DNA of 38,267 bases, taken from IMG/VR virus record IMGVR_UViG_3300020403_000031, positions 1-38,267 of that record. One strand, written 5' to 3'. A model generated the notes under the pieces. The model had not been told where the DNA came from and made no database searches. It saw only the letters and a program-made list of their open reading frames with translations. The stretch's first letter is position 1, and the number at the start of each line of letters is the position of its first letter. The DNA comes from a virus (lineage: Duplodnaviria > Caudoviricetes). Below, in pieces: positions 3,055 to 36,575 of this stretch. The position numbers and the translations under genes are program-made.

Positions 3055-6000
3055 ATGTTCAATGTAGTGAATGGCTCTATAATTCTAACAGTTGACAGTG
3101 ATGATCAAAGACCAATAGTTTTGCCATTGCCGATTACTACAGAAAATAGTACAAATAACATTATAGACTTTATCAGTGACAATGTAGGCCCTGATACTAC
3201 AGTTTATGTCGATATGGATAATACTATTGCAGATTTTAATAAGGCACTAGCAGGTTTATTTGCTTATACTAATGCAAGAGATATAGTAGCAACAACAGAA
3301 GAAAAAGTTGCTACAATTTCAGCGGCAATGCCTGGCTTCTTTTTAAATTTAGAAAAATTGCCTCAAGCAGAATATCTTCTATCTAAGCTAGGTAATTATA
3401 AAATTTTAACAACTGATACAGGGTTATTAAACGGTAACGGAGAAAAAGTAGATTGGGTAACTAATAATTTAATTACATATCCTCCAACTGGTGATGTCCT
3501 GTTTGCACTTAACTTTAACAAAGGTTCTTATGCAAATTCTACTAGCGTGTTAATCGATGATAGTCCTACATATGTGAAACAATTCAAAGATGCAGGCGGA
3601 GAAGCATTTAGGTATATATGGTCAGAGATAGTTGCAGGATCATTACCTCCTGGATTTAGCTTAGTTAATAATGAAATTGTAGGAACTCCAATAAGTCAAA
3701 ATACTACAACAACAAGCACATTTACTGTCAGAGTACACGATAATGAAGGTTACTTTGAAAGAGAATTAGCTATAACAGTTAACGCTGATCCTAATTACAA
3801 TGCTTGGCAAGTTCAATCGCCTTATGATCTAGGTAGATTTATTGAACGTACACAAACTAATATACTTTTACCAATTGACCAAACAGATTCGCCAACAGTT
3901 GCAGTGATCGCTGGAGAACTACCTCCGGGTTATAGACTTGAAGGATATAATATAATAGGATCTGCATTTGAAGTTGCAAGATTAAAAACTTTTGATTTCG
4001 TAATACGTGCAACAGTAAACAACACAATAGCAGATAGAAAATTTAGTATTACCATAGAAGGTGAAGATGCTCCTCAATGGGTAACACCTGCAGGTGATTT
4101 AAATATAGGATCTACATTCTCAGAAAGTTTTTGGATTGATGAAGTAAATAGCGAATATGGTATATACTCAACAATTAATTATATCACATATACTGTCACA
4201 GTTGCACCAGGCACAAATAGTTATGGAACAGGAAACAAATATTATATAGATGGTGTTCTCAGTCCAGCATTAACATTAAGAGAAGGAAGCACATATAGGT
4301 TTGATCTTTCAGATGCATCAGTTGAAACACACGGTTTGAGATTTTCTGTAACTCCAAATGGAATATGGGGTGCAGAACAAGTTGGAGAAGAATACACAGA
4401 AGGAGTCAAGGTTGTTGGAACAGCAGGTAACGTAGGCGCATATGTAGAAATATCTGTACCAAGAAATGCACCTAATTTACATTACTATTGTATAAATCAT
4501 AGTGGTATGGGCAATAGTGCAATAACAAGTAAACCAACAAGTTACACAAAACAAAATGTAACTACATCAAACGGAGTGCCTAGTAATAGCACAGGAAACG
4601 ATGGCGATTATATTTTTGATACTATCAATAACATATTTTATGTCAAATACAATGGAATATACAAGTTAGTAAATCAGTCTCAGTTAAGAAGTTTGTATGG
4701 TAACACAACAAGATTAGAAGTTAGCACAACAATACCTAATCCGCTTGAAGTAGATTTTTGGTTCAACATAAATCCAGATAATCAAGGATTAAAGTTTAAG
4801 ATTGCAAACTTTAATAGTAGCAAACTTTTGTGGCAGCCAAATAATTATAAACTATCTAAAACTGCACCTATTGATCCAGAAGATAAAGATTTGTGGATAC
4901 AATACTTTGACAATGACACAAAAATTATTCTTAGATATTATGATAAAGACGAATTGCAATGGATTCCTTTACCTTATACATCAAGCAACGTTCCTCCAGA
5001 ACGTGCATCTAATGCGTTTTTTGTAATAGATAATAGTAAAGTTGAGTTTCAATTAGAGGCCATAGATCCAGATTTAACAGCCGGCGACACTTTAAAATAT
5101 TATATTCAAGACGGCGATGGAGAATTACCGCCAGGATTGACACTTTCATCAAGTGGAAAAATTGCAGGAATAGTGGATCCTATACTTGCTCTTGATTCAG
5201 ATAATTACGATCCATATGGAGATAGTACAAGACAACAACAAGGTGTGACTGATACAGAAGGTTATGATAGTTTTAGTTTTGATACACAATTCTATGGTTT
5301 TGGATTACCAAGCAGGAATCCAAGAAAATTAAATAGAGAATATGAATTTTTTATTACTGTAGCAGATGATGTTAGCGAAAGTAAAAGACGCTTTAGTATA
5401 TATGTTGTAAGTGATGATTTTTTAAGAGCCGATAATACAATTATGAGATCTGCAACTGGATTGTTTACAGCAGATGTTACATACCTAAGAAGGCCTATAT
5501 GGTTGACTCGAGGAGACCTAGGTTCAATTAGGGCCGATAATTACAATACAATTTTTATAGAAGTTTATGATCCTAATTATTTACTAGGAAACATTAATTA
5601 CAATTTATTAAATTATAATGATGATGGTACGCCTAGTGTAGTTCCTGATGGATTAGAATTTGATAGTTCTACAGGTGAATTAGCAGGTATAGTGCCTTAT
5701 CAACCAGCAGTTGAGAAAGAATATAAATTTACAATTGAAGCGACACGTAGTGAAGCGGATCAAGAAATATTTGAAGTAAACACAAATATACTTGAAGATA
5801 CACTTGCAGGAGCTGAAGTATTAAAGGTTAGGAAAATTTCACGTGATATGTCAGACGGTATAGATGATGTAGTCGCGTTAATAGATACAGCAGTTACAAT
5901 AGAAAATAACGATTACTTGATTCTTAATATTAATGAAGATGAAAGCGATGATTATGATGTTTTAGAATTTGCATATCCATTACTTCCAAGTCCAAATTTC

Positions 6001-10731: not shown

Positions 10732-11418
10732 ATGATAGCAAGAAATGCAACAATCGCAAGTAAAATGTACGATGAAGGCTTGCGTAAATTTATGATTAAT
10801 ATGTATAACCACACTGCGCTAGGATTAGCAGTAAGTGGTTTTATTGCCTACCTTGTGTTTACAACAGGTATGGTATATAGTATGGGTGCCCTAATGTGGG
10901 TGTTTATGTTTGCTCCTCTAGGTATGATTTTATATTATGGCTTTGCGGGACAAAATTGGAGCCTACAGGGTATTACACGCTTTTACTACCTATTCACGGC
11001 AGTTATGGGTGTAAGTATGAGTACTATCTTTGTAGTGTACACGATGATGAGTATAGCTCAAGTGTTTTTTATCACTAGTGCAACATTCGCGGCCGCCAGT
11101 CTCTACGGATACACTACGAAACGTGATCTTACCACTATGGGTAGTTTTCTCATTGTAGGCTTGATTGGCATTATTATTGCTAGTATTGTAAATATTTTCT
11201 TGGCAAGCTCAGCATTTGCATTTGCAATTAGTATTTTAGGAGTGCTTATCTTTGTAGGTATGACTGCGTGGGATACACAAACAGCAAAAAATTTATATAT
11301 ATCTGCACCTAATATGGATGTAGCAGAAAAATATGGTGTTCAAATGGCTTTGAGTCTCTATTTAGATTTTGTGAATTTATTCCAATTTTTATTAGCACTA
11401 TTAGGTAATAGAGAATGA
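10732..11418 (+). CDS. Bax inhibitor-1/YccA family membrane protein
   Basis: About 7 hydrophobic segments; YGYTTKRDL, AWDTQ and ALSLYLDFVNLF motifs. Confidence 0.9.
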   Translation: MIARNATIASKMYDEGLRKFMINMYNHTALGLAVSGFIAYLVFTTGMVYSMGALMWVFMFAPLGMILYYGFAGQNWSLQGITRFYYLFTAVMGVSMSTIFVVYTMMSIAQVFFITSATFAAASLYGYTTKRDLTTMGSFLIVGLIGIIIASIVNIFLASSAFAFAISILGVLIFVGMTAWDTQTAKNLYISAPNMDVAEKYGVQMALSLYLDFVNLFQFLLALLGNRE

Positions 11419-15942: not shown

Positions 15943-16853
15943 AAGAACTATGGGTAGAAAAGTATCGTCCAAATAAAGTGGATGGTTATGTATTTAGAGA
16001 TGATGCACAACGCAAGCAAGTAAATACTTGGATTAAAGATAATACTATTCCACATTTGTTGTTTAGTGGAAATGCAGGTATTGGAAAAACAACACTTGCA
16101 AAATTGTTGTTTAATGAACTTGATGTAAATCCATTAGACATACTAGAGATAAACGCAAGCCGCACAAACTCAGTTGATGATGTGCGAGATAAAATTGTTG
16201 CGTTTGTGCAAATGATTCCATTTGGCGACTTTAAGGTTGTGTTGCTAGATGAGGCAGATTATCTATCTCCAAACGCACAAGCGGCATTGCGTGGTGTAAT
16301 GGAAGAATATCATACAACAGCAAGATTTATACTAACTTGTAACTATCCAAATAGAATTATTCCAGCAATACACAGTAGATGTCAAGGCTTCCACATTGCT
16401 AAGATTGATCAAACAGAGTTTACAGCAAGAGTTGCAGAAATTTTGATTACAGAAGGTGTAAGTCCAGACTTAGATGTACTAGACACATACGTAAAAGCTA
16501 CATATCCAGACTTGCGCAAATGTATCAATATGGTGCAAATGAATTCAGTTGAAGGCAAACTTGTAAGTCCACAAGAAGGCGATAGTGGCGAAGCAGACTG
16601 GAAGCTAGATATGGTAGAACTGTTCAAAGCAGGCAAGATCCACGATGCACGTAAGTTGTTGTGTGGCACTGTGCGAGCAGAAGAAATGGAAGAAATTTAT
16701 CGTTGGTTGTATGACAACATTGAACTGTTCGGAACAGACGAACAGCAAGACCAAGCAGTGCTAATTATAAAGCAAGGTTTAGTAGATCATACATTAGTTG
16801 TTGATCCAGAAATTAATTTGGCAGCAACGCTAATTAGACTAGGAGCATTATGA
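15939..16853 (+). CDS. Sliding-clamp loader ATPase (T4 gp44/RFC small subunit-like)
   Basis: LWVEKYRP, Walker [18 protein letters not shown] and SRC motifs. Confidence 0.92.
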
Positions 16854-17191
16854 CATACATAGTAAATGATAGTTGTATTAGATGTAAACATATGGATTGC
16901 GTTGAAGTTTGTCCCGTAGATTGTTTTTACGAAGGCGAAAATATGCTGGTTATCAATCCAATTGAATGTATTGACTGCGGTGTTTGCGAACCTGAGTGTC
17001 CAGCAGATGCAATTCTTGCAGATACTGCACCAGGTGCTAAAGAATGGGTAGAGTTCAATCAAAAGTGGAGTGATATTTGGCCTAATATCACAGAAATGCG
17101 TCCTGAAGATGTACCAGAAGATGCTGAAAAATGGCAAGGTGTTGAAGGCAAAATGCAATACTTTAGCGAAGAACCAGGAAGGGGAGATTAA
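16850..17191 (+). CDS. fdxA: 7Fe ferredoxin (FdxA type)
   Basis: [43 protein letters not shown]; AGGAG RBS. Confidence 0.92.
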
Positions 17192-20808: not shown

Positions 20809-20969
20809 TGCAAACACATTGCGAAAACTGTGGTCGGACTAGCCATTGCGGTACTGCATTTTACGAAGAACACAAAAACTACAACGAGCCGCCAATAATA
20901 ATAAAAATTTGTCACCATTGCAGATGCGGCGACTGCAACCCTAACATAAAGGAAAATACAAATGGGTAA
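20808..20969 (+). CDS. Small Cys/His-rich putative zinc-binding protein, 53 aa (not in ORF track)
   Basis: MQTHCENCGRTSHCG...ICHHCRCGDC; AAGGA RBS and TAATG coupling. Confidence 0.7.
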   Translation: MQTHCENCGRTSHCGTAFYEEHKNYNEPPIIIKICHHCRCGDCNPNIKENTNG

Positions 20970-21819
20970 ACAACACTTTAAATTTGACTTTGAACCTTGG
21001 ATGGCAGAAGAATTAATTCATAGATCAGACTGGGAAGATTGGTATGAAGCAATGCTTGAAATACTTCCACTATGGGAAGTAGACACAGCAGAACGTGTTG
21101 CTATGTTTATAGCACAATGTGGACACGAATCAGGAGGCTTTAGAGTATTAAGTGAAAACTTGAACTATAGCGCCAAAGCATTGAACACAATATTTCCAAA
21201 ATATTTTAAACGTGCAGGAAGAGACGCAAATGAATATCACAGGCAACCAGAAAAGATTGCTAATGTCATTTATGCGAACAGGATGGATAATGGTGATAGT
21301 GCCTCTGGTGATGGTTGGCGTTTTAGGGGTGGAGGAATACTTCAACTCACAGGGCGATACAACTACACAGAATTTGGAGAAGCTGTCGAAATGTCCCCAG
21401 AAGAAGCAGTAGACTATGTCCGTACTAAAAAAGGTGCATTAGATAGTGCTTGTTGGTTTTGGGACACTAACAGATTAAACAAATATTGTGACGATATGGA
21501 TATTGTAGGTGCTACAAAACGTATTAATGGCGGAACAATTGGACTTGATGATAGGAAAAAACATTATCTTCACGCAATGGATGTATTAGGCGGTGATTAT
21601 GAAGCACCCGAAGAAAAAGAATTGAACACAAATCAAACAATACGCAAAGGATCAAAAGGACCATTAGTTGCCGAAGTGCAAGAAAAGTTGGGCATAGCAC
21701 CAGCAGATGGTATTTTTGGACCAGGAACAGAACGTCACGTCAAAAACTGGCAAACAAAAAATGGTTTGACAGCTGATGGTATCGTAGGTCCTAAAACACT
21801 GGGAAAGTTATTGGGATAG
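20962..21819 (+). CDS. Endolysin: glycoside hydrolase family 19 with C-terminal peptidoglycan-binding domain
   Basis: AQCGHESGGF, ENLNYS, FRGGGILQLTGRYNY, TKRINGG; C-terminal DGIFGPGT...ADGIVGPKT. Confidence 0.92.
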   Translation: MGKQHFKFDFEPWMAEELIHRSDWEDWYEAMLEILPLWEVDTAERVAMFIAQCGHESGGFRVLSENLNYSAKALNTIFPKYFKRAGRDANEYHRQPEKIANVIYANRMDNGDSASGDGWRFRGGGILQLTGRYNYTEFGEAVEMSPEEAVDYVRTKKGALDSACWFWDTNRLNKYCDDMDIVGATKRINGGTIGLDDRKKHYLHAMDVLGGDYEAPEEKELNTNQTIRKGSKGPLVAEVQEKLGIAPADGIFGPGTERHVKNWQTKNGLTADGIVGPKTLGKLLG

Positions 21820-21821
21820 GT

Positions 21822-22310
21822 ATGGGTGCCAAGTTAGCTATTGTAATGTTCTTGTTGCTTTTAGGAGCAGGCGGTATTGGTTATTGGTATTATAACGATA
21901 CACAAGCACGTATGGCTATCCTACAAGAAAACAATGCTAAATTAAACACCGCAGTAGAACTAAATGAACAAACTATAAGTTCGCTAGAAAAAGACTACGA
22001 AAAAGCGTCTAGCGAACTTGCTACACTAAATGAACAATATACTGCTATACGCAGACAAAATCAAAGACTTGCAGATAAGCTACAAGAAATAGATTTGACT
22101 GCGGCAGCTATTGCAAATGCAAAAAGTATTGAACGTGCTGTGAATAGGGGTACAGTAAATGCAGGTAGATGTTTTGAACTTCTATCGGGGGCAGAACTTA
22201 ATGACAAAGAAAGGAACGCTGAAAATGGCATCGCTTTTAACAAAGAGTGTCCTTGGCTTTACGATACTTATAAGTCTCGCGGCCTGCTCAACCAAACCAC
22301 AGCAGATTGA
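21822..22310 (+). CDS. Inner-membrane spanin (Rz-like)
   Basis: N-terminal TM, long coiled coil, two C-terminal Cys; follows the endolysin and overlaps a lipoprotein gene. Confidence 0.7.
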   Translation: MGAKLAIVMFLLLLGAGGIGYWYYNDTQARMAILQENNAKLNTAVELNEQTISSLEKDYEKASSELATLNEQYTAIRRQNQRLADKLQEIDLTAAAIANAKSIERAVNRGTVNAGRCFELLSGAELNDKERNAENGIAFNKECPWLYDTYKSRGLLNQTTAD

Positions 22311-22617
22311 TATATCTACTAGTCCAGTAGAAAAACCTACATTAGAGTTACCTCCTGTAGATGAACTCAATATGCGTAATGTTGAATGGATAGTACTTAA
22401 TGAAGCAAATGTAGATGAAGTCATAAAAAAACTTAATAGTGAAGGTAAAGCGTTTGCTCTTTACGCACTTACAGGTGAAGGTTATGGTAACCTTGGACTA
22501 AACTTTAGCGACATAAGAGCACTTGTTCAACAACAACAAGCAATTATAGCAGCCTATGAAGGATATTACAAAGAGGCAGAACAAGCACTTGATAAAGCAG
22601 TTGTTGTGGATAACTAG
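22225..22617 (+). CDS. Outer-membrane spanin lipoprotein (Rz1-like)
   Basis: Signal peptide with lipobox LAAC, Pro-rich linker; overlaps the i-spanin 3' end; AAGGA before the ATG at 22225. Confidence 0.7.
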   Translation: MASLLTKSVLGFTILISLAACSTKPQQIDISTSPVEKPTLELPPVDELNMRNVEWIVLNEANVDEVIKKLNSEGKAFALYALTGEGYGNLGLNFSDIRALVQQQQAIIAAYEGYYKEAEQALDKAVVVDN

Positions 22618-23116
22618 TTTACTAATCACGTTAGTAGGCTGTAATCCGATTCCAGATCCAGTAAGCACAGCTCATAATTATGTTGGGTTGCAAGAGCGTC
22701 AAGATAGAAAATTAATTAAAGAATTTGTTGGAGTTGATCCGGTGCGTACAGAATGGTGTGCGGCTTTTGTTAATGCTATTTTAGAATTAGAAGGCTTATC
22801 AGGATCTGAGTCAGTTAGTAAAGCGCCATTATTGGCAAGAAGTTTTTTAAATTGGGGTGATAAAGTACAACCAAAAGATATACAACGCGGAGATATTGTG
22901 ATATTTCCTAGAGGTGATGAAGGTTGGAAAGGACACGTTGGATTTTTTATTGAGGAAAAAAATGGTCATTGGGTAATACTTGGTGGTAACCAAGGTAATG
23001 AAGTAGGTTATGATTATTATAAACCTAGTGAAGCTTTAGGCATACGTAGAGCTAAATACACACATATAATTGAGGGCAATATAGATGTGGGAAATGATAG
23101 AAAGAATGGCCAGTGA
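22556..23116 (+). CDS. TIGR02594-like CHAP/NlpC-P60 peptidoglycan hydrolase, putative lipoprotein
   Basis: WCAAFVN, GHVGFF, LGGNQ; lipobox LVGC; start codon uncertain. Confidence 0.8.
   Translation: MKDITKRQNKHLIKQLLWITSLLITLVGCNPIPDPVSTAHNYVGLQERQDRKLIKEFVGVDPVRTEWCAAFVNAILELEGLSGSESVSKAPLLARSFLNWGDKVQPKDIQRGDIVIFPRGDEGWKGHVGFFIEEKNGHWVILGGNQGNEVGYDYYKPSEALGIRRAKYTHIIEGNIDVGNDRKNGQ
23052..23058 (+). promoter_or_regulatory. Late promoter variant (CTAAATA)
   Basis: Upstream of a GAGG RBS and the ATG at 23085. Confidence 0.45.
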
Positions 23117-23381
23117 CAGGCTATGGATTTATACAGCATTAGCAGGGTCAGTATTTGGTGCTATATTTGTCGCATACATAAGCACTACAAGAATAGGTCT
23201 ATGGGGCTATGCCCAAGTAGACAGAGCTATAGATTATCTTGTTAATAGATGGGGATTAACTTGGCTTGAGCAACCAGAAGATGCTTGGCGTAAAAAATAT
23301 CCTAAAATAACATCAAAGATAGATTCAATTGAGGCAAGACTAAACAAATTGGAGGGTAAGAATGCCAAGAAAAAAACTTGA
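23085..23381 (+). CDS. Single-TM membrane protein (possible lysis accessory)
   Basis: Hydrophobic LWIYTALAGSVFGAIFVAYI and a C-terminal coiled coil. Confidence 0.7.
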   Translation: MWEMIERMASDRLWIYTALAGSVFGAIFVAYISTTRIGLWGYAQVDRAIDYLVNRWGLTWLEQPEDAWRKKYPKITSKIDSIEARLNKLEGKNAKKKT

Positions 23382-23733
23382 AGACTTAGACGCAACCCCA
23401 GCAGAAGAGCCAAAGGCAGATGCTGAAGTTGTTGTTCCAGCAAGTAGCAGTGGTGCTACAAAAAAAGTAAAACTAGACTTAGAAGTAGATACAAGTGTAA
23501 AAGACTTAGGACCTAATCCTTATGCTAAAGTTATACACCTAGCAAAGGCTGTGGATGCTTGGAGAATCTTTCCTCGTATTTTTATTTCAACATACATTTA
23601 CTTGTTATACAGATGTGTAATTTGGTATATGGAATTGCCAGATCCAACGCTAGAACAATCAGGGCTTATCAGTGTGGTAGTAGGTGCTGGAGCAGCCTGG
23701 TTTGGACTATACGCCGGAACTAGCAAAAAATAA
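23362..23733 (+). CDS. Holin-like two-TM membrane protein
   Basis: DAWRIFPRIF...two hydrophobic segments, basic C-terminus; last gene of the lysis cluster; GGAGG RBS. Confidence 0.6.
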   Translation: MPRKKLEDLDATPAEEPKADAEVVVPASSSGATKKVKLDLEVDTSVKDLGPNPYAKVIHLAKAVDAWRIFPRIFISTYIYLLYRCVIWYMELPDPTLEQSGLISVVVGAGAAWFGLYAGTSKK

Positions 23734-27316: not shown

Positions 27317-27989
27317 AACAAAAAAGTTACACTACAACAAATATCTGTATAAAATTGCAATACGTAATCAATGTGCAAGTTTCTTCCGTACAGAATTTCA
27401 AAAAGGTGTTCAGCTTAGTTACGCAAAGAAACGTATAGATGAATGTCATCAATGGTATGATGTAAAGCATCCGTCAATAGATATTCCTTGGGGTAATAAA
27501 TATGTAAATCGTATACCAAGAGAACATTATTGGGACGCAATTTCTATTTACAGACATCTTAAAAACCAAGAAGGTTATATTGTAAGATGTGAATTAAATT
27601 GTTTGAATATATACAGTAATGATCGTAATTTTCTAATAAAACTTAATAATAAACTAAAAAACAGTTACATAGAATTTTATGAACCTGATCCAGAAAAGGT
27701 TGATTTGTTACTAAATGATAAAAATGTAATTTTAGTAAACAAATTACCAAAATATGAATATAAAATTACGCTAGGTAGAAAAAAAGGTTCTGCATCTCTT
27801 GCAGAATGGATAGATACCAATCCTCATTTAGCAAAAATGGGAGATACAGCAAAACAAGAATGTTACAATCAAGGTTACGTAAAAGGTTACTACTTTTTTG
27901 TGAGTAATAAAAAAAGTTTATTAATTGCACAAATGATGGTAGGCGAAAACATACAAAGGATAGACCATTTAGTGTATACTGATAAATAG
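27303..27989 (+). CDS. Hypothetical protein
   Basis: Long open frame; ATG at 27303 preferred over the TTG at 27294. Confidence 0.75.
   Translation: MKLLETKKLHYNKYLYKIAIRNQCASFFRTEFQKGVQLSYAKKRIDECHQWYDVKHPSIDIPWGNKYVNRIPREHYWDAISIYRHLKNQEGYIVRCELNCLNIYSNDRNFLIKLNNKLKNSYIEFYEPDPEKVDLLLNDKNVILVNKLPKYEYKITLGRKKGSASLAEWIDTNPHLAKMGDTAKQECYNQGYVKGYYFFVSNKKSLLIAQMMVGENIQRIDHLVYTDK
27982..27988 (+). promoter_or_regulatory. T4-type late promoter motif (ATAAATA), possibly giving a leaderless mRNA
   Basis: 5 nt upstream of the ATG at 27994 with no RBS between. Confidence 0.6.
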
Positions 27990-27993
27990 TATT

Positions 27994-28566
27994 ATGCACT
28001 ATATAAGTATAAACTTTGCAAACTTTGATCATTTGGCTGTAGCTGAAACTGTTTCCTCTATAGGTACTAGTCTTTTTGAAAATGTAGACGAGTACCAATT
28101 AATAGAAAACAACAATATGTTTACTGTAACATTAGATACTCCGTTTGCATTGACAGAAAATGAAATACAAGGAGTAGCAATGAAATTATTTGAATTAGGT
28201 TTGAATGACTTTGAAATAAATGCGTCGGAAGATTATGACAATATTTCAGAAGTTACACTAGATGATAATCAAGACTTCCACGAATATTTTGGTTATCCTG
28301 GATACGTTGACGAAGACGGAGTTTGGGAAGCAGAATATCAAGGAAGAAAAGTGAAACTTGGCAAACCAATGGCAGGTGATGTAAAGAAGTTCAAAGTTTA
28401 TGTAAAAAATCCAAAGGGTAATGTTGTAAAAGTTAACTTTGGTCAAAAAGGTATGAAAATTAAAAAGAATAATGCCGCTAGACGCAGAAGTTTCCGTGCA
28501 AGACATAACTGCGATAATCCAGGACCGCGTCATAAGGCACGTTACTGGAGTTGCAGAAAATGGTAG
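27994..28566 (+). CDS. Putative head-associated protein: acidic N-region plus basic C-terminal module
   Basis: Sharp switch after WE to the basic AEYQGRKVKLGKP...VKVNFG...SFRARHNC...ARYWSCRKW module. Confidence 0.7.
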   Translation: MHYISINFANFDHLAVAETVSSIGTSLFENVDEYQLIENNNMFTVTLDTPFALTENEIQGVAMKLFELGLNDFEINASEDYDNISEVTLDDNQDFHEYFGYPGYVDEDGVWEAEYQGRKVKLGKPMAGDVKKFKVYVKNPKGNVVKVNFGQKGMKIKKNNAARRRSFRARHNCDNPGPRHKARYWSCRKW

Positions 28567-28709
28567 TTCAAAATCCAAATATTGATCCATATGGATATAC
28601 AGAATATGGATATAGAGGGCTAGAAGAATTAAAAAAAGCAAATGAAAAAATAGAAGAATTAAAAAAAGAGATAGAAGAACTTAAAAAAAGGTTAGAAGAA
28701 AATGGTTAA
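28560..28709 (+). CDS. Small coiled-coil protein, 49 aa (not in ORF track)
   Basis: GGAG RBS; MVVQIQNIDPYGYTEYGYRGLEELKKANEKIEELKKEIEELKKRLEENG. Confidence 0.65.
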   Translation: MVVQNPNIDPYGYTEYGYRGLEELKKANEKIEELKKEIEELKKRLEENG

Positions 28710-29226
28710 AATAAATGAATTTCACGATATGGATATACCAAAAGAAATTTATCCAAAACCTGATTACGATGTAAAAGAAGATTTAAAAATTTATATGCGT
28801 AATGATCCAATGTTTTATCGTAAAGCATTTTTTCCTGCATTTGACCAATATAGAAAAGATAAAAATACAAAAACTTTAGAAAAAATGGTAAACAATGGTC
28901 TTGCAAATTATTGCAAAAAATTTGAATTACCTTTTGCTCCTAAAGAACTACTAACTAGAGAAGATATAGTAACTGTTGTTAATGAACTTATCAATGATGA
29001 ATTTGAAGAAATGAACGAAGGCGTTATGGATTTAGTTAAAGGTTTTGGTAATAGAATTATGCACGGCAAAAAAGATCCTTTTAAAGATTATATAAGATAT
29101 GCACAAAAACGCCTAAATTACAAAACAGACAAACAGTTGCTTTCTGATATGAGAAGAGAATTTCCAAAAGCGGCACCAGCAGATTTAGCGAGGGCGATTG
29201 TACAAGCAAGAAAAGCGTCTGCCTAA
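28702..29226 (+). CDS. Putative internal head protein
   Basis: MVKINEF leader; internal MNE/G boundary before a basic module. Confidence 0.65.
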   Translation: MVKINEFHDMDIPKEIYPKPDYDVKEDLKIYMRNDPMFYRKAFFPAFDQYRKDKNTKTLEKMVNNGLANYCKKFELPFAPKELLTREDIVTVVNELINDEFEEMNEGVMDLVKGFGNRIMHGKKDPFKDYIRYAQKRLNYKTDKQLLSDMRREFPKAAPADLARAIVQARKASA

Positions 29227-29435
29227 TGGATATTGCGGAGTTACAACACTTAGCAGGTATACGCAACAAGTTCACAGGGTGGACACCTTACACTGCTGAA
29301 AATATCAGTATAACTGGAACAGAAAAAGCTCGTATACAACGTAAGAAAAAAATACAACCAGGCACTGAAGAATGGTTTAAACTATGGTTTTCACAGCCTA
29401 AGTTGACTGGAGAAAAGCCCTATGAAGATAAGTGA
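29226..29435 (+). CDS. Putative internal head protein
   Basis: MDIAELQHLAGI start; IQPGTEEWFKLWFS motif; TAATG-coupled. Confidence 0.65.
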   Translation: MDIAELQHLAGIRNKFTGWTPYTAENISITGTEKARIQRKKKIQPGTEEWFKLWFSQPKLTGEKPYEDK

Positions 29436-30447
29436 TCTATCAGAAGGTGCCGGACGTATAGTTAAAGGTGTCAATACTACTGTAGATGTTGGCGTTAACG
29501 AAATACCACGTCAAGCTAAAAAATTTGGTAATACAGTTGATAAAGACGGACGTCCTCCTACATTAAGTAAAAAAGTCAAAGGTAAAAGTACAAATGTTTT
29601 ATTTAATTTAGGAATGGTTAAAGAAAACAAACAAACATATACAGCACAAGAATTGGCAATAATGGAAGGTGGTCATACACTAGATGAAAAGCCATTGACA
29701 AATAAACCAATAGGCAGTATAATGCAAGAAATGATGACAGTTGAATTCAAAGAAGCTATAGGCGAATTGTCACCAAGTACAGACATTTATGTCGATATGG
29801 ATGGTGTACTAGCAGATTTTTTTGGAGAATGGGCAAAAATAATGCAAGTAAACCATTTTTCTCAAATTAATAAAAAACACGATATAGATGATGCATTACA
29901 AAAAATTAGAGATACTGATGAATTTTGGCTAAACCTTCCATTGTTACCGCAGGCAACAACACTTTTATATTTGATAAAGAAAGTAAAAGGAAGTTACAAC
30001 ATTTGTAGTAGTCCTTTAGCAGACGACCCAAGATCAGAACCTCATAAACGTGAATGGATAAAAAGAAACTTAGATTTCTTCCCTCCAAAAAATGTGTACA
30101 TAACACATAACAAACAAAATTATGCAAAAAATTTAGATGGAACTCCAAACATTTTAATAGACGATTATGGTGTAAATATCAATGCTTGGGAGGAAGCAGG
30201 CGGTATTGGATTTAAATATAAGGATCATAAATTCGAAAGAACTGCAAAAGCTATAAAAAATGCTATGCAAGAAAACTTTGCTGATGGCAAAGTAAAAGGC
30301 AAAAGCAGACCAGGGCGTGTAAAACGTTCAGGTGCTAGTTGTAATGGATCAGTAACTGATTTACGTAAAAGAGCTAAAAATAGTAGTGGTGAAAAGGCTA
30401 AAATGTACCACTGGTGCGCTAATATGAAAAGCGGTCGTAAAAAGTGA
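29422..30447 (+). CDS. Modular protein with HAD 5'(3')-nucleotidase domain and basic flanking modules
   Basis: MKISDLSE leader; YVDMDGVLADF, CSSP, KREW, LIDD HAD motifs; basic NFADGK...HWCANMKSGRKK tail. Confidence 0.8.
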   Translation: MKISDLSEGAGRIVKGVNTTVDVGVNEIPRQAKKFGNTVDKDGRPPTLSKKVKGKSTNVLFNLGMVKENKQTYTAQELAIMEGGHTLDEKPLTNKPIGSIMQEMMTVEFKEAIGELSPSTDIYVDMDGVLADFFGEWAKIMQVNHFSQINKKHDIDDALQKIRDTDEFWLNLPLLPQATTLLYLIKKVKGSYNICSSPLADDPRSEPHKREWIKRNLDFFPPKNVYITHNKQNYAKNLDGTPNILIDDYGVNINAWEEAGGIGFKYKDHKFERTAKAIKNAMQENFADGKVKGKSRPGRVKRSGASCNGSVTDLRKRAKNSSGEKAKMYHWCANMKSGRKK

Positions 30448-30656
30448 CAAAGCAAAAAGGAATTGATTGGGCTGAAGAATATCCAGATGGGTATAGCAAA
30501 AAATGGAGAGAATACGAAGTTAAGGAATGGAAAAAATTAGATCCAGATGGATATGCACATTATATAGATAAATACAAAGAACACGAAGCTAATAAAACAA
30601 GTACAGATGATAGAAACAAGTATTGGCAAGAATGGGCAAAAAGGAATAAAATATGA
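30444..30656 (+). CDS. Small Trp/Tyr/Lys-rich hypothetical protein
   Basis: GTG start overlapping the upstream TGA; PDGY occurs twice. Confidence 0.55.
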   Translation: MTKQKGIDWAEEYPDGYSKKWREYEVKEWKKLDPDGYAHYIDKYKEHEANKTSTDDRNKYWQEWAKRNKI

Positions 30657-31228
30657 AACTAAATGAATTTTTAAATGAAGCAGATTATGAACTATCTCCA
30701 CAACAGCGTATGCTCGCTAATATAGGTCGTGTACTTGGAGTACAGGCAGAGCAAGTTAAAGATGATGCACTTGCAAACACAATGGCTAAGATTGGAAATG
30801 AACTTACTAATGTTGGAAGATCTTTTGCTCCAACAAGTTTAAAAGATGTAGCAGACAGAACAGACTTACCAGTTGATGTTGTTAAAAAAATAGTTATGTA
30901 TGGTAAAAAAGTTGCCGATGCTACAGCTCAAATTAAGAAAGACCACAAAGACGGCGGACTTAATGATCACATAGAAGAAAAGTCTAAGGGTCTATATTAC
31001 TATGTAAACAAAAACAAAAAATCCGGCAAAAAGCCTCGTAAGAAAGGGGCAAAAGGAGCACCAACTGATCAAGATTGGAAAGATGCTGCAAAGACTGCAA
31101 AAGAAAATGTAGAAGAAACAACTAGTGCCGGTGGTGTAGCCGCAGTAGCTATGCCCTTAGGTGATATGCAAAGTCGCACAGGTCCTAAGAGAAATAAGAA
31201 GCCAACCAAACGCTCTAAAGATAAATAG
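30653..31228 (+). CDS. Putative internal head polyprotein
   Basis: MKLNEFLNE leader; modules beginning after IEE and VEE; AAGGA RBS. Confidence 0.7.
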   Translation: MKLNEFLNEADYELSPQQRMLANIGRVLGVQAEQVKDDALANTMAKIGNELTNVGRSFAPTSLKDVADRTDLPVDVVKKIVMYGKKVADATAQIKKDHKDGGLNDHIEEKSKGLYYYVNKNKKSGKKPRKKGAKGAPTDQDWKDAAKTAKENVEETTSAGGVAAVAMPLGDMQSRTGPKRNKKPTKRSKDK

Positions 31229-31243
31229 TATAGTATACTATTT
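31221..31243 (+). promoter_or_regulatory. Late promoter (ATAAATA) overlapped by a 10-bp perfect inverted repeat
   Basis: ATAAATA at 31221-31227; AAATAGTATA-G-TATACTATTT at 31223-31243; GGAG follows. Confidence 0.6.
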
Positions 31244-31254
31244 GGAGCATTATA

Positions 31255-31887
31255 ATGGGAAAATATTGGAAAAAAGATGGCGTAGAAATGTGCCCTAAAG
31301 AGTGCTGTGGTTCTCCAATCACCGAATGTACCTGTGATACAAGTTGCAAAGAATGTAACTGTTATGAACGCAAAGAATCAATCAATGAAGGTTTAGCAGA
31401 CTTGGCTGATATGGCGGAGCGTGATCACGAAGTACAAATGGCACGTAGTGATTTGTATAAAATAGCAAAATATGCAATCAAACTTCACGAAATGATGAAA
31501 AATGTAAGCGAAGCTGATGGTATCGAAGGATGGCAACAAGCAAAAATTACCAAAGCTGCTGATTATATGAGTAGTGTATTTCATAGTTTAGACTATGAAA
31601 TGAATATGGAGACTGCTCCTAAATTACCTGAATCAGTAAAACCAAAAAAACACTTGCGTATGTTAAGTGATAGCGAATTAAATTCATATAAAGGAACATT
31701 GGCTATGAAAATGAAGGAAATTACAGAATCAATTGGTTTATGTCCAGACTGTGGTAACCCAAGTTACAAAACATTACCTGAAGAAAAGCAAAAAGGCGTT
31801 GACGGCAAAGTATGCTGGAAAGGTTACAAGCGTATGGGCACTAAGAAAAAAGACGGCAAGACTGTAGATAACTGTGTAAAGATGTAA
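31255..31887 (+). CDS. Putative internal head polyprotein with Cys-rich N-terminus
   Basis: CPKECCGSPITECTCDTSCKECNC; helical DHEVQMARSDL module; CPDCG; C-terminal CWKGYKRMGTKKKDGKTVDNCVKM. Confidence 0.7.
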   Translation: MGKYWKKDGVEMCPKECCGSPITECTCDTSCKECNCYERKESINEGLADLADMAERDHEVQMARSDLYKIAKYAIKLHEMMKNVSEADGIEGWQQAKITKAADYMSSVFHSLDYEMNMETAPKLPESVKPKKHLRMLSDSELNSYKGTLAMKMKEITESIGLCPDCGNPSYKTLPEEKQKGVDGKVCWKGYKRMGTKKKDGKTVDNCVKM

Positions 31888-32012
31888 TGAAAATAAAAGA
31901 AGTCATATTGGAAAAATGGAGCGCAAAATACAAGAAAAGTATTAACTGCTCTAATCCAAAAGGCTTCTCACAAAAGGCACATTGCGCTGGCAAAAAGAAA
32001 AGGAAAAAGTAA
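31887..32012 (+). CDS. Small basic protein with capsid-targeting-like leader, 41 aa (not in ORF track)
   Basis: MKIKEVILE/KWSAKYKKSINCSNPKGFSQKAHCAGKKKRKK; TAATG coupling at both ends. Confidence 0.75.
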   Translation: MKIKEVILEKWSAKYKKSINCSNPKGFSQKAHCAGKKKRKK

Positions 32013-32629
32013 TGGACTACAATGCACTACAACACAAACTGTTTGCAATGGATCCTACCGATCCAAAAGAAGATTTAGCAAAATTAAGATCACAAATAGG
32101 TGGAGATGCTCCAGTATCCGCTCCGGCTATTGATTATATTGCTGAAAGTGCAGTTGTACCAGAAGGTTCTTTACAAATGGATCAGAATCTAAGTGTAAAT
32201 GATTTTGCTACTCTTGCAGGTGTTGTTACTGAAAAGCATAAAACAGGTTCAGCAGGACAGGCAAAAGGCCGAGATCCTATGCCTAGCACAAGCAAACCTA
32301 GTAAAACAGGTGAACAACCTCATCCATTAAAAGGCAAACTTGTTGGCGAAGGCGAGGAAGATCGTATTTCAGCACTAGAACGCAGAATTGAAGCATTAGA
32401 AGCAATGTTAAGCGAACGTGAACTTACTAAACCAGAAGAGAAAGAAAAAGAACGTTTAGTAAAAGGTATGAAGAAAAACACAAGTGATTTTAAAAAGCGT
32501 TATGGAAAAGACGCAAAGGCAGTAATGTATGCAACTGCAACAAAAAATGCAAAGGCAAATGCAAGTATTGATACTAGTGATATAAAAAGTAAATTATATG
32601 ATGCATTAAGTAGAAAGTTAGGTGTATAA
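32012..32629 (+). CDS. Putative internal head polyprotein
   Basis: ATG at 32012 (TAATG, AAGGA RBS) rather than the TTG at 31982; modules after IAE, VTE, VGE, LSE. Confidence 0.7.
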   Translation: MDYNALQHKLFAMDPTDPKEDLAKLRSQIGGDAPVSAPAIDYIAESAVVPEGSLQMDQNLSVNDFATLAGVVTEKHKTGSAGQAKGRDPMPSTSKPSKTGEQPHPLKGKLVGEGEEDRISALERRIEALEAMLSERELTKPEEKEKERLVKGMKKNTSDFKKRYGKDAKAVMYATATKNAKANASIDTSDIKSKLYDALSRKLGV

Positions 32630-33525
32630 TGAAGTTTCAAGAAATAGATATAAATGAAGACGAAACAATTGCAAGAACTCTAAAAAGAGGAATGAAGGGC
32701 GCAGATGTTAGACGTATTCAAAGAGAACTTGGAATGCCAAAACGTGAACAAGATGGGATTTTTGGTAAAAAAACAGAAAAAGCAGTAAGAACTTTTCAAA
32801 AAAATATGGGTATACAAGTTGATGGAATGGTTGGACAACAAACTCAAAGTGCAATTCTAAAAACTAGAATGCCCGGTACAAAAATAAATGTACTCAAGCC
32901 AGGTCCTGCTTATATTGACGCACCATATCCAGATACTCCAAAAAGCTCACCCAAGAAAGATATTAAGCCAAAAATCAGTGACCTTAGACGTAGACAAATG
33001 GACAAACAAAAAAATGCTGGTCCTAAAGACAGTCCAAAAGGATCAGATAGTCCAAGATTTTATAAACCAGTAGATCCTAAAGACAGCACAAAAGGATCAG
33101 ATAGTCCAAGATATTATGCACCACCAAAATCAGGTTATATGGATGCTCCAAAAGGAAAAAGTGTGCCTAAAAAAGGCCCGGGCGATACACCAGAACCAAA
33201 AGGCGATCCACTAAAAGGAAAAGATTTACCTAGTGGACCAGGAGGAGATCAAGCTCTACCACAATATAGACCAAAAGGTGATGCATTAGGAATGAAAAAA
33301 GATCCGCAGAATATGGTACGTCCTTCAGTGGTAGCACCATTAAGCAAAAGATCATACAAGATTGTTACTGGATCAGGACAAGGTAAAAGATATAAATTAT
33401 ACGATAAGAACGGAAATTTAATTAAAAGTGGAAGAGGAGCAGGACCTAGAAATGTTCCTCAGAAAAAACTAGTCAGTGTTAAAGACTCGTTGTATAATTC
33501 TATAACTAAAGAACTAGGTGTCTAA
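32629..33525 (+). CDS. Peptidoglycan-binding domain protein with Pro/Lys/Gly-rich tail and capsid-targeting-like leader
   Basis: MKFQEIDINE; LKRGMKGADVRRIQ...DGIFGKKTEKAVRTFQ...VDGMVGQQT. Confidence 0.8.
   Translation: MKFQEIDINEDETIARTLKRGMKGADVRRIQRELGMPKREQDGIFGKKTEKAVRTFQKNMGIQVDGMVGQQTQSAILKTRMPGTKINVLKPGPAYIDAPYPDTPKSSPKKDIKPKISDLRRRQMDKQKNAGPKDSPKGSDSPRFYKPVDPKDSTKGSDSPRYYAPPKSGYMDAPKGKSVPKKGPGDTPEPKGDPLKGKDLPSGPGGDQALPQYRPKGDALGMKKDPQNMVRPSVVAPLSKRSYKIVTGSGQGKRYKLYDKNGNLIKSGRGAGPRNVPQKKLVSVKDSLYNSITKELGV
33022..33117 (+). repeat. Two near-identical 42-bp direct repeats, period 54 bp, in frame
   Basis: CCTAAAGACAGTCCAAAAGGATCAGATAGTCCAAGATTTTAT at 33022 and CCTAAAGACAGCACAAAAGGATCAGATAGTCCAAGATATTAT at 33076. 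Confidence 0.85.
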
Positions 33526-36236
33526 TGAAATTACTAGATGTCCTCAAGGAAAATGCCTTGCAGGCATTCGCTACTAACAAAAATATAAATGTTTTTGTTG
33601 GCCCTGATACAAATGACACAGACTTAGTAAAAGCAATCCAAAAAGAACTATCTAAGCATAGTATTGCCAAAGGAGAAAGACCTGAAGGACAATGGTGGCC
33701 TAACGATACAAAAGGTTGGACAGGGCCTATTAACGGTGTTTGGGATAATAGAATGACTCAAGCAGTTGTTGAATGGGAACGTAGTATCAATATACAACTT
33801 GCAGATATGAAAGGCTCCCAACGTCCGTTAAATGCAAACGGTATGATAAGTCAACAAGATGCAAAATATTTATTAGCACCTGTGAATAACTTAGGATGGT
33901 TAAAAAATAGAGAACTTGAAAGTGCTATTTCAAAATTAAAAAATATTATTAAAAAATTTCCTCCTAGAAACGGTCAACAAATTGCTAATTTTGATATCTA
34001 TAAAATTAACACATTTTCAGATATGATTAAAAGCATAGGCTATGACGGATGGATGGCTATATTAGTACCAATTGCTAGAGTTAGATTTGGTGATGGTCAA
34101 ATACCTCGAGATACACTAGTAAACTGGGCAAATGATAGTGTAGCAAAAATATTAAACAATTCAAGAAACAACGACTTATTAAATGATAATTGGAGAGCTA
34201 TTATGCTTCCATCAAATAATGGAAGAATAAAAGCAGGTAATCTTTTTGGTGGTGAAACATTCATAATACCAGATTTTGAAAGACTAAGAAAAATTAAAGA
34301 AACATATCTTGGGCCAGGATTAGAAAAAACAGAATTATTTGATAGGCCAAAACTGCTTTTTTTACATTATGCAAGTATTGCACAGTTTTACATAGAGTCA
34401 AACAAAGTTGCACTAAACAAACAAGCAAAAGAAACAGAAGAAGAGAATGCAAAGTCTAAGCAAAATGATGTTGCAAATATAGACCAGCTTACTGCTAGAC
34501 AATTAGCAGAACAAATCAATAATGCAATGGAAAACAATTACTGGGCAATATTTACTTCTAAACGTGTAGAGAGTGACGAAATGTCCATTGAAGAGGCTAT
34601 GACCGAACTACACAATGCAAAAGATTATGATGCTGTTGCAGTTGAATTCAAGGATCTTACAGGCGAAGATTTATCTATCAAAATGCGAGCAGAACTAGAT
34701 GATGATTTATACAAAAGTATATTTGTTGGGCATTTAGTACGTATTAGGCGAATAAATCCACGTTTGTATCACAACGCTATACAATTTGGCGGTGCAGATA
34801 GCGTTACAGTAAATTATGCAGATCAAGAATTCAAAATTTTGGCGGCATTTAATGATAACAATGGAAGACCAAATATAGAACCAGAAGTCAAAGATGTGAT
34901 TTTAGAAGATGCTTTGCTTAAAGAAGCAATCAACAACACAGGCGGCCAACTTCCTGATCTTTATAGACAACCATCTGCAGCAGAAACTACACAAGCTGTA
35001 GATACATTCATCAATGTTATGAATGAAACATATCCAGAAATGACTGCATTTTATGCACATCTTCCTCCATTCACAGACTATCCTCCTTTTGGTAAGTTAC
35101 GTTTAAAAGGCATTATAGAAGAAGTAACAGTGTATACTGCCGCTGGTTCTGATCCTACGCAGTTTATTATTAATTCTATAGAAAAAGATAGAATTTGGTT
35201 AGTTGGTGATGGCAGTGATAATGACGGTGACGGAGAGCCAGATCCTGGTAATGCAAACATTTATTTTGATTCTAAATATGCAAGTGAAGGATTAAATGGA
35301 AGAGATTTTGAAATTGGTGAAGAAGAAGAAAAAATTGACTTAACTGACCAGGAATTAGATATTATTAGAGACCTTGCTAGTGGTAAAGAAGATATTGTTC
35401 TTGGTGCGATAGATCGTTTATTTGCATTGAATAATCCTGCAAAACAATATATAGATAGAATATATCCAGGATACAAACAAGAGACTGGACAGTTTATTGA
35501 ATTTGACCTAGGCGGTAGAGGTGACGATGCTTGGACACACAAATTTTTCTCAAAAGAGGAAACAAGTTCAAACAAGTATATGGAAAAACTTCTAACAGAA
35601 ATGGCAAATTCCAAAAACACTGCACCACTACAAGTTATTGCATTTATTGCACCTAAAGGTGTAGCAGATGAATTTAAACTTGCATTGAATAGACCAAGAT
35701 TCGGTGGAATATTTAATGATGTTGACGAGGAGCATTTGAAGCGCCTTGTAAAAGCAGTAATGAATCGAGAAGATTTTAATTTAGTAGACAAATATTATGA
35801 TGGTGATTTACAGCAAGAAATAGAAGACAAAGATTGGTGGGGAGAAAATCCAGAAACTACAGAATTACTTAACAAAATTGGTATAAATCCAAAAGAATTA
35901 AAAGCAGAGGAAAACTTTACATTACTTAAATCTGAAACTGAAGAAGTTATAGGACAACTCAATGCACTTCCAACTAAAGCAGAGGATAGGACGCAAGCAC
36001 TTGAAGAAATAGATTTTCTATCTGTGATTGAAAGAATAGAAAAATACGTTGATGAAATACAAGATAATTCAAGTAAAGACGGATATGGTGAACAGGATAT
36101 GCTTAAGGATTTACTAGACGAAATTGCCCCTTATTTTGTTCAGAGCAATTTTAGTATGAAATACCGAGATATACCTAATTGGCAAGAAGCATCAGAAAGA
36201 TTGAAAAAAATATATGAAAGATTAGGTGGCGATTAA
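33525..36236 (+). CDS. Large putative internal virion protein with PG-binding-like N-domain and annexin-like repeats
   Basis: MKLLDVLKE leader; VKAIQKEL...GPINGVWD...AVVEWE...LNANGMI; two annexin-like helical repeats; DNDGDG motif. Confidence 0.65.
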   Translation: MKLLDVLKENALQAFATNKNINVFVGPDTNDTDLVKAIQKELSKHSIAKGERPEGQWWPNDTKGWTGPINGVWDNRMTQAVVEWERSINIQLADMKGSQRPLNANGMISQQDAKYLLAPVNNLGWLKNRELESAISKLKNIIKKFPPRNGQQIANFDIYKINTFSDMIKSIGYDGWMAILVPIARVRFGDGQIPRDTLVNWANDSVAKILNNSRNNDLLNDNWRAIMLPSNNGRIKAGNLFGGETFIIPDFERLRKIKETYLGPGLEKTELFDRPKLLFLHYASIAQFYIESNKVALNKQAKETEEENAKSKQNDVANIDQLTARQLAEQINNAMENNYWAIFTSKRVESDEMSIEEAMTELHNAKDYDAVAVEFKDLTGEDLSIKMRAELDDDLYKSIFVGHLVRIRRINPRLYHNAIQFGGADSVTVNYADQEFKILAAFNDNNGRPNIEPEVKDVILEDALLKEAINNTGGQLPDLYRQPSAAETTQAVDTFINVMNETYPEMTAFYAHLPPFTDYPPFGKLRLKGIIEEVTVYTAAGSDPTQFIINSIEKDRIWLVGDGSDNDGDGEPDPGNANIYFDSKYASEGLNGRDFEIGEEEEKIDLTDQELDIIRDLASGKEDIVLGAIDRLFALNNPAKQYIDRIYPGYKQETGQFIEFDLGGRGDDAWTHKFFSKEETSSNKYMEKLLTEMANSKNTAPLQVIAFIAPKGVADEFKLALNRPRFGGIFNDVDEEHLKRLVKAVMNREDFNLVDKYYDGDLQQEIEDKDWWGENPETTELLNKIGINPKELKAEENFTLLKSETEEVIGQLNALPTKAEDRTQALEEIDFLSVIERIEKYVDEIQDNSSKDGYGEQDMLKDLLDEIAPYFVQSNFSMKYRDIPNWQEASERLKKIYERLGGD

Positions 36237-36308: not shown

Positions 36309-36575
36309 ATGAGCGATCGTGTCTATGGTGCTGAAGAAAAAGCAAAATTAGAACGCCTGGTAAAAGAAGGCGTAACTGTATTACAAGAAATTGAAGATTT
36401 GCAAGGTGGATTAAAAGAAACAATTAAAGCTGTTGCAGAAGAATTAAGTGTAAAACCAAGTCTTATTAATAAAGCAATTAAAGTTGCACAGAAACGTGAC
36501 TGGAGTCGTGTTGCAGACGAGTTTGAAGATTTAGAAACACTTGTTGCTACCACAGGATATGACAAGGACGCTTAA
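36309..36575 (+). CDS. T4 DsbA-like double-stranded DNA-binding protein
   Basis: 88-aa helical protein, KLERLVKEG...EIEDLQGGLKETIKAVAEEL.VKPSLINKAIKVA. Confidence 0.6.
   Translation: MSDRVYGAEEKAKLERLVKEGVTVLQEIEDLQGGLKETIKAVAEELSVKPSLINKAIKVAQKRDWSRVADEFEDLETLVATTGYDKDA

Follow-up and report, generated by a model that had tools for sequence, protein, structure and literature searches.

Organization of the array

The DNA analysed here, called the window below, is the whole of record G000, a 38,267-nucleotide (nt) fragment of an uncultured giant phage. Our subject is a block of genes at positions 27994-36236, between clpA and polB, which an original prediction had read from the sequence as 11 coupled genes for polyproteins that are packaged in the capsid and cut into small basic peptides. 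The block is bounded by a ClpA-adjacent gene (ending at 27989) and by the gene before polB (starting at 36309), and this location is kept in relatives. It holds 12 consecutive open reading frames (ORFs) on the + strand rather than 11 genes, a 49-codon ORF at 28560-28709 having been missed. The coupling was as described: ten of the 11 gene junctions overlap by 1-14 nt, and one, before 31255, is a 26-nt gap. All six similar leaders are present as quoted, in the genes starting at 28702, 29422, 30653, 31887, 32629 and 33525, as are all ten hydrophobic-x-Glu junctions. Genes are named below by their first position, lengths are in amino acids (aa), and charges are net charges.

27981-27988, +: GATAAATA, late-promoter-like motif heading the array; ATAAATA lies 5' of 14 of 29 orthologues
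27994-28566, +: 190-aa gene; acidic N-terminal part with 10 [ILVMF]xE sites, then basic module B
28330-28563, +: module B (AEYQG...RKW), 78 aa, +21, 2 Cys, PHROG 7595
28560-28709, +: 49-codon coiled-coil-like ORF, coupled on both sides, rare in relatives
28702-29226, +: 174-aa gene; leader MVKINE, conserved middle domain, optional C-terminal basic module GVMD (68 aa, +9)
29226-29435, +: 69-aa gene without a MKIxE-type leader; copy of the scaffold-tail motif at its start (29238-29261)
29422-30447, +: 341-aa predicted polyprotein; leader MKISDLSE, GxGRIV module, NT5C nucleotidase, module H
29767-30273, +: predicted NT5C-type HAD nucleotidase with DxDG motif, in the 341-aa gene
30274-30444, +: module H (NFADGK...GRKK), 57 aa, +14, 2 Cys
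30444-30656, +: 70-aa leaderless ORF with a GATAAATA motif inside it at 30567-30574
30653-31228, +: 191-aa predicted polyprotein; leader MKLNEFLNE, neutral domain J, basic module K (KSKGLYY, +8), module L
31118-31225, +: module L (TTSAGG...), 36 aa, +7; shortened copy of the N-arm of the major capsid protein
31220-31227, +: GATAAATA before gene 31255; ATAAATA lies 5' of 27 of 37 orthologues
31255-31887, +: 210-aa predicted polyprotein; optional 8-Cys N-terminal module, acidic helical GLAD, CPDC, module P
31783-31884, +: module P (CWKGY), C-terminal, +7
31887-32012, +: 41-aa gene; leader MKIKEVILE and module Q (KWSAK, 32 aa, +12, 2 Cys)
32012-32629, +: 205-aa predicted polyprotein without an N-terminal leader; scaffold-tail motif (32201-32224) just before VTE, then modules S (+5) and U
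32417-32626, +: module U (RELTK), +9
32629-33525, +: 298-aa protein; leader MKFQEIDINE, peptidoglycan-binding PF01471, Pro/Lys-rich tail, no internal site
33525-36236, +: 903-aa acidic protein of no known family; leader MKLLDVLKE

Several modules are Lys/Arg-rich, as had been claimed. Others are neutral, acidic or enzymes (GLAD -6, ADYEL -2, NT5C -2), and the 903-aa protein is acidic (-48). The enzyme in gene 29422, assigned from its sequence as an NT5C-type HAD nucleotidase, scored 30.8 bits with PF06941 against a cut-off of 24.8 and has DMDG at residue 125. A second copy of this domain is found at residues 48-185 of a 1645-aa baseplate- or tail-like protein (window 3055-7992, PHROG 2643), where it has no leader. 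Modules B, H, O, P and Q have exactly two Cys each, which suggests a disulfide or a shared metal site. The optional 8-Cys, metallothionein-like module at 31255-31389 was covered by the alignments of about 7 of 80 loci; in relatives it is also present in other proteins, after x-x-E.

Genes 32629 and 33525 appear to code for single proteins with a removable leader and not for polyproteins. In the 903-aa product of 33525, the leader site was kept in 11/11 homologues (one identical) and was the only conserved one, the 19 internal sites being kept in 1-8 of the 11. A peptidoglycan-binding domain suspected by eye at the start of this protein found no support. AlphaFold models of the 903-aa protein (mean predicted local distance difference test score, pLDDT, 37.6) and of module B (51) were too poor for fold searches.

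Modules recur in many contexts behind hydrophobic-x-Glu

The claim that modules are mixed and matched was borne out. In syntenic relatives the same modules occurred in 46 different architectures, and PHROG models already contain window modules in other orders. Module H had 6254 longer relatives. In the best 120 of these, which were 88-100% identical over the module, its fusion partners were NT5C, GNAT, NMNAT-like, sigma70 region 4, pterin dehydratase and Cu/Zn superoxide dismutase domains. The module stood at the C-terminus in 118 of 119 proteins and was >90% identical in unrelated fusions. Module U gave 1702 clusters at 50% identity and lay near the C-terminus in 68 of 159 copies. Given these positions of H and U, one cut would often free the module. 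Module B was found in 7650 proteins of 42-137 aa. Among isolated phages module H had no match; the T4-like phages C48C1, HTVC008M, S-SM1, Syn9, S-E7 and S-CREM2 carry B, K, P or U in other contexts. A match to module P was also seen near the N-terminus of halovirus HRTV-4 gp37 (527 aa; L185:1336-2919), with L-D-E before it.

Because the search queries started after the Glu, the residues upstream were not selected. For module H, with 124 internal copies behind 39 unrelated upstream families, Glu was at -1 in 39/39 and [ILVMF] at -3 in 32/39. For module U, with 111 copies and 48 upstream families, Glu was at -1 in 46/48 and a hydrophobic residue at -3 in 40/48. The background frequency of [ILVMF] at -3 is 0.24-0.25. 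In both sets of contexts -2 was free and positions -4 to -12 were near background. Within 160 loci the motif preceded B in 21/21 cases, H in 27/33, Q in 8/9, L in 4/4, K and S in 3/4, U in 8/13 (Glu in 13/13) and GLAD in 13/22 (Glu in 19/22). The -3 residue was written with 14-18 different codons across three modules. Before NFADGK it was V, L, I or M in 54/68 contexts and Ala in 3/68, and Thr was also common there (6/68), as it was before GLAD (6/22). Domains C, E, R, I, N2, F2 and V, whose starts were set regardless of the motif, had no motif at those starts, as is expected for N-terminal or arbitrary starts. An origin of the junction Glu from Shine-Dalgarno sequences was rejected: GAG was not enriched at -1 of H, B or Q (U, 9/29).

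Module B offered a comparison between fused and free forms. In Pelagibacter phage Kolga and Roseobacter phage CRP-902 it is a gene on its own, and residue 2 of the product is the Ala found just after the Glu in the window protein; CRP-3 has a free, more diverged copy. Among 120 relatives of the CRP-902 form, 103 started Met-Ala at the module and nine had Met or Val just before it; eight lay outside this pattern, seven of them visibly Met-Ala; the motif was seen in none. Among 120 relatives of the window form, 118 were matched, and Glu was at -1 in 118/118. Since free B lacks the Glu and fused B has it, the Glu is not part of the domain; and since free B starts at the predicted cut, the predicted cut product is also a natural gene product. 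Kolga, CRP-902 and CRP-3 lack PF03420, the gp21 protease family; C48C1 and HTVC008M, both with x-x-E fusions, have it. A free module P of 32 aa lies next to the head genes of Kolga as well. Kolga-like small phages (L182:1498-1840, L266-L271, L287) have free B and P together with other tiny basic ORFs, and these free modules sit between ribonucleotide reductase and the head genes.

Leaders, site density and promoters

In the window, [ILVMF]xE occurred within the first 12 residues of 7/12 array genes and of 4/36 other genes (one minus-strand gene omitted). In 80 related loci, which are not independent of one another, the figures were 261/478 distinct array ORFs and 49/523 flanking ORFs; a strict leader pattern was found in 106/478 and 6/523, a 24-fold enrichment in odds. 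The six window leaders are 6-10 residues long, with V, M and F also at -3. A survey of leaders across the genome of a relative, G005, was uninformative, since its array is truncated by the contig end. Two genes 5' of the G005 head module (L087:2358-5173) also start with leader-like sequences, so putative cargo genes also lie outside the clpA-polB island.

The 11 shorter genes have 53 [ILVMF]xE tripeptides versus 28.3 in shuffles, a count reached in 0/1000 shuffles (73 versus 49.7 with the 903-aa gene included), while ClpA (25 versus 21) and PolB (14 versus 13) were near the shuffle level. Within the array proteins the sites are concentrated in acidic spacers and sparse in basic modules. Cutting in silico at every motif left the acidic stretches in pieces mostly of <25 residues. 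What stayed intact were basic pieces 32-78 aa long (+5 to +21), the core of the nucleotidase and a 288-aa remainder of 32629. Net charge increases across the ten quoted junctions (Wilcoxon p 0.006), and the charge after them exceeds that after 41 other sites (p 2e-4); both tests concern junctions that were picked for this property in the first place.

The motif GATAAATA, which resembles a late promoter of the T4 type (T4 late promoter, TATAAATA), is found upstream of 27994, 30653 and 31255, at distances of 13, 86 and 35 nt. The proposed late-promoter motifs thus do lie near three genes, and in relatives ATAAATA was 5' of 61/472 array ORFs versus 4/542 flanking ORFs; in the window alone the count of GATAAATA was not above chance (6 versus 4.1 +/- 2.1; 21/100 shuffles). 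Marine RNA libraries from two studies contain exact-match contigs over parts of most array genes, where DNA carry-over is possible and depth cannot rank the genes.

Links to protease, capsid and scaffold

The gp21-like protease that the original prediction called for is encoded by related contigs and is not in the 38-kb fragment. In related contigs gp21 adjoins gp23 in 2/5 cases (completeness 17-51%), and the capsid loci of the clade hold 79 proteases in 80 loci. The N-terminal arm of the capsid protein was found by pattern in 76/80 loci, with L-x-E before the arm in 76/76; set against T4, this site and the first residue of mature gp23 are some ten residues apart. Module L copies this arm. Relatives carry E-TATAGATSAGNIA, and Glu preceded the arm copy in 31/31.

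The arm copies resemble above all the capsid of their own phage. For the G005 arm, the highest scores were those of the window and G005 islands (3 and 4 of 200 shuffles). The S-CREM2 arm scored best on that phage's own gp160 (95 versus 67; 18/24 identical, E 2e-8), and the Syn9 arm on its own gp190 (98 versus 66). A tblastn search with the S-CREM2 arm copy gave no match. Syn9 gp190 (L344:16430-16954), annotated in RefSeq as 'major head protein', has 174 aa and begins with a copy of the Syn9 capsid N-arm.

A second link is to the scaffold. Its C-terminal tail, D/E-I/L-K/R-R-L-A-G-L/I, was present in 45/45 scaffolds recovered. The pattern gave 80 matches in 1854 locus ORFs versus 0-2 in 20 shuffles, mainly in the families of 29226 and 32012, and both window genes carry it and lack the usual leader. 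In many relatives of 29226, [IV]-x-E comes after the motif copy. Prediction of a complex between the 29226 product and the G005 capsid protein gave 0.41, versus 0.00 for the best control, with no interface given (contact agreement at least 76%, partner pLDDT at least 53). The mark used was reached by 116/157 solved and 2/215 mismatched pairs; at values up to 0.60 it was reached by only 18/157 solved pairs and by both of the mismatches. The model thus gives weak support to a predicted binding of the 29226 product to the capsid protein of a relative.

Homologous proteins in virions

Published proteomics bears on relatives of the array proteins. In the part of PMC3037559 available, Table S8 gives T4-GC119 with 13 peptides in column 1, as not present in column 2 and as not detected in column 3; from the main text and the pattern of absences we read the columns as S-SM1, S-PM2 and Syn9. 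The GC119 member of S-SM1, gp115, holds modules U and P. The same source gives 25 peptides for the cytidylyltransferase GC190, which often has a leader of the MKKFSAFLxE type. For S-CREM2, Table 3 of PMC10665884 lists gp154, gp155, gp156 and gp160, the last with seven peptides; gp160 holds module P and the capsid-arm copy.

Interpretation and alternatives

We consider it probable that 27994-36236 encodes shuffled modules joined at [ILVMFT]-x-E that are predicted head cargo, cut by gp21, with the basic pieces staying with the DNA. Transcription would be late, from the GATAAATA motifs. The products may then be loaded into the prohead by one of three tags, each recognizable by its likeness to a known sequence: an N-terminal MKIxE..xE leader resembling the T4 capsid targeting sequence (six genes), the copy of the scaffold C-terminal tail (29226, 32012), or the copy of the capsid N-arm (30653). 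Cleavage after Glu by gp21 is likely in this phage, to judge from the sequences. It would reduce the site-rich acidic spacers to pieces of 3-20 residues, which would leave the head. The survivors would be the nearly site-free basic peptides, the NT5C nucleotidase, the peptidoglycan-binding protein and the 903-aa acidic protein. If cutting takes place at every exposed motif, the order of modules in a fusion does not matter, which would account for the shuffling. The freed basic peptides would most likely neutralize or organize the packaged DNA and enter the cell with it, and the enzymes would most likely act early in infection. Peptide function is the weakest step of this scheme; charge and conservation favour DNA neutralization. 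Taken as a whole, the original prediction is partly supported: its core held in each comparative test applied (recurrence of modules after x-x-E, a gp21-type protease in related contigs, virion proteins that share modules), while two genes do not look like polyproteins and several modules are not basic.

A number of observations weigh against head cargo released by internal cutting. The 38-kb record contains no protease or capsid gene of the phage's own. The contrast between free and fused B is drawn from few lineages; the motif held in only 3/8 independent internal contexts of GxGRIV and 1/3 of LNE/ADYEL; and the Glu codon before H is GAA in 56/56, so it may travel with the cassette. A crude blind test of breakpoints, with untrimmed BLAST ends, was near null (0.23 versus 0.19, 257 families). 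We attribute this to over-extension of the BLAST ends, and the test was repeated with trimming, which gave 0.35 versus 0.15 (47 families; 3/5000 permutations), with Glu in 28% at the first matched position. This signal is real but moderate: only 17/47 trimmed families had the motif in a majority, many breakpoints were without it, and both data sets were enriched for modules B, H and U through the queries used. The arm test was not significant for HTVC008M (22/200 shuffles) or C48C1 (28/200), and the scaffold-tail pattern was composed after the sequences had been seen. Among the virion data, Syn9 gp114, of the GC119 family, was not detected (PMC3037559, in the part available), and the authors of PMC10665884 allow that co-purified contaminants may be among such proteins. 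In PA5oct, 10/12 genes between clpA and polB are marked as found by electrospray tandem mass spectrometry (ESI-MS/MS); these virion genes match no module and were not used as support. Finally, T4 expels most of its cut fragments, so retention of the basic peptides cannot be taken as given.

Three other explanations were considered. The proteins might be head cargo that loses only its leader, the internal x-x-E tripeptides being scars of fusions between leader-bearing genes that work uncut. Most modules are also seen in genes of their own, where a leader comes immediately before them (NFADGK and RELTK, for example, at residues 9-10), so that fusion would carry the motif along, and the invariant Glu codon before H and the pattern of 32629 and 33525 are of the kind expected. 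We nevertheless regard this as unlikely, because -3 and -1 are kept while -4 to -12 are at background, and -3 alternates between Val, Leu, Ile and Met with many codons, a variety that calls for ongoing selection; nor would scars explain why sites are concentrated in acidic spacers and scarce in basic modules. Quite unlikely, in our view, is that the products are transient, scaffold-like components of the prohead core, all of whose pieces, basic ones included, are expelled after cutting and before DNA is packaged. T4 core fragments do mostly leave the head (PMC9026906, in the sections available), the scaffold-tail and capsid-arm copies point to assembly, and the missing Syn9 gp114 would be explained. 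Against expulsion, homologous proteins were detected in the mature particles of two cyanophages, conservation is far higher in the basic modules (H >90% identity) than in the spacers, and the modules include enzymes and free genes in phages without gp21.

The remaining possibility, that these are late cytoplasmic proteins which bind nucleic acid or ribosomes and never enter the head, with the Glu motif a domain cap or chance, seems to us improbable to a greater degree. It draws on the shortness and commonness of x-x-E, the contaminants that virion mass spectrometry may carry, the near-null crude test and the presence of module B in phages without gp21. It does not sit well with free B starting at the same point without the Glu, with one motif common to unrelated modules, with cargo that holds copies of the phage's own capsid arm, or with the 24-fold enrichment of leaders in the array.

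Cut head cargo could be one part of something wider: a core-protein system of marine T4-superfamily phages, in which small, highly conserved basic peptides from a shared pool, serving to condense or organize the genome, are carried on polyproteins addressed by three interchangeable tags and released by the prohead protease, and in which small phages encode the same peptides as free genes. Bacterial viruses would then have their own version of the core proteins that large eukaryotic viruses mature by proteolysis, and any enzyme fused at an x-x-E joint would become virion cargo by this plug-in route. We put this forward tentatively, as a possibility.

Comparison with known systems

In the available text of PMC9026906, T4 internal proteins are loaded by a leader of about ten residues, cuts fall after L/I-X-E, and most fragments are expelled; the leader, it is suggested, may let T4-like phages take up varied proteins. 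The T4 proteins IPI, IPII, IPIII and Alt are alike in having a short leader ending in hydrophobic-x-Glu, with divergent cargo behind the shared tag, and relatives of the window phage have a gp21-family protease (PF03420) and a gp23-family capsid. The T4 internal proteins differ in being single-domain and losing a terminal propeptide, according to the same sections. The window array has up to four or five modules per gene, with internal joints, shuffled across thousands of proteins; it has Val, Met, Phe and Thr at -3; and it has the scaffold-tail and capsid-arm copies as further tags. Pfam and PHROG searches with the 12 genes and 16 modules gave no match to IPI-III.

Head and inner-body proteins of phiKZ and SPN3US are similar in that many are cut after Glu (PMC9026906, PMC10052503, PMC13282480, as far as available), and phiKZ propeptides carry redundant cut sites (PMC9026906, likewise). 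They belong to another phage group, have an S/A/G-X-E motif and are large ejection proteins trimmed at their ends; the NFADGK contexts, with so few Ala at -3 (3/68), do not follow that motif. In the polyvalent proteins of Iyer et al. 2017 (PMC5512222, available part), unrelated domains, GNAT among them as here, are fused in virion-delivered proteins, which those authors compare to polyproteins. Cutting is ascribed in that scheme to an embedded zincin-like MPTase, and MuF often serves as anchor; neither MPTase nor MuF gave a Pfam match in 12 window or 61 related proteins, and Pfam may miss divergent MPTases. The joints of the array match the prohead protease instead.

The cyanophage families T4-GC119 and T4-GC190 (the cytidylyltransferase) are alike in having modules U and P, MKKFSAFLxE-type leaders and x-x-E joints; in the portions of PMC3037559 available they are described as structural or hypothetical only, with no modular or processing reading. 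Several names were considered and dropped: neither DUF5754 (16% of members) nor OAR (16-25%) reached its Pfam cut-off, the ESM Atlas gave only unnamed viral clusters, and T4-GC15 as DUF6267 was ruled out. A literature search found no description of shuffled, gp21-jointed basic-peptide polyproteins, most matches having been judged by their listing and subscription journals being sparse. The principle itself is known from T4.

In adenovirus (pVII, pX/mu) and African swine fever virus (pp220/pp62), core proteins arise from precursors through a maturation protease of the virion. Some of these core products are likewise small and basic and stay with the genome. These are eukaryotic viruses with an unrelated protease, and the likeness is an analogy only.

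Genome setting

The fragment also carries tail and baseplate genes, GroES-, DnaJ- and ClpA-like genes and a family B polymerase; a PF07733 match is a minimal piece of DNA polymerase III alpha. The best phage matches of ClpA include PA5oct, Atu_ph07 and RaK2 at 39-44%, and related contigs of 170-182 kb are rated about half complete. The phage fits the T4-superfamily group 2.2 jumbo phages of PMC7824862, an assignment that we infer from the part of that paper available. Among the other genes are a lysis-like cluster at 20962-23733 (a GH19 glycoside hydrolase with a peptidoglycan-binding domain, an Rz-like spanin and a CHAP/NlpC-like protein) and two genes named by eye from their translations, a multi-pass membrane protein like Bax inhibitor-1/YccA (10732-11418) and a 2[4Fe-4S] ferredoxin-like gene (16850-17191).

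Significance

The DNA of tailed phages is usually thought to be neutralized by cations and polyamines, with few internal proteins. If the array does encode protease-released head cargo, some of the hypothetical proteins most often met in marine viromes (three modules alone account for 6254, 7650 and 1702 clusters) would be one system with predictable mature termini. The nucleotidase, NMNAT-like transferase, Cu/Zn superoxide dismutase and GNAT acetyltransferase at the joints would be delivered by the virion rather than made after entry. The analysis also supplies exact peptides that can be sought in cyanophage proteomic data that already exist, together with natural loading tags and cut sites that can be set beside the T4 capsid targeting sequence. 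In sum, the head-cargo reading would account for thousands of unexplained phage proteins.

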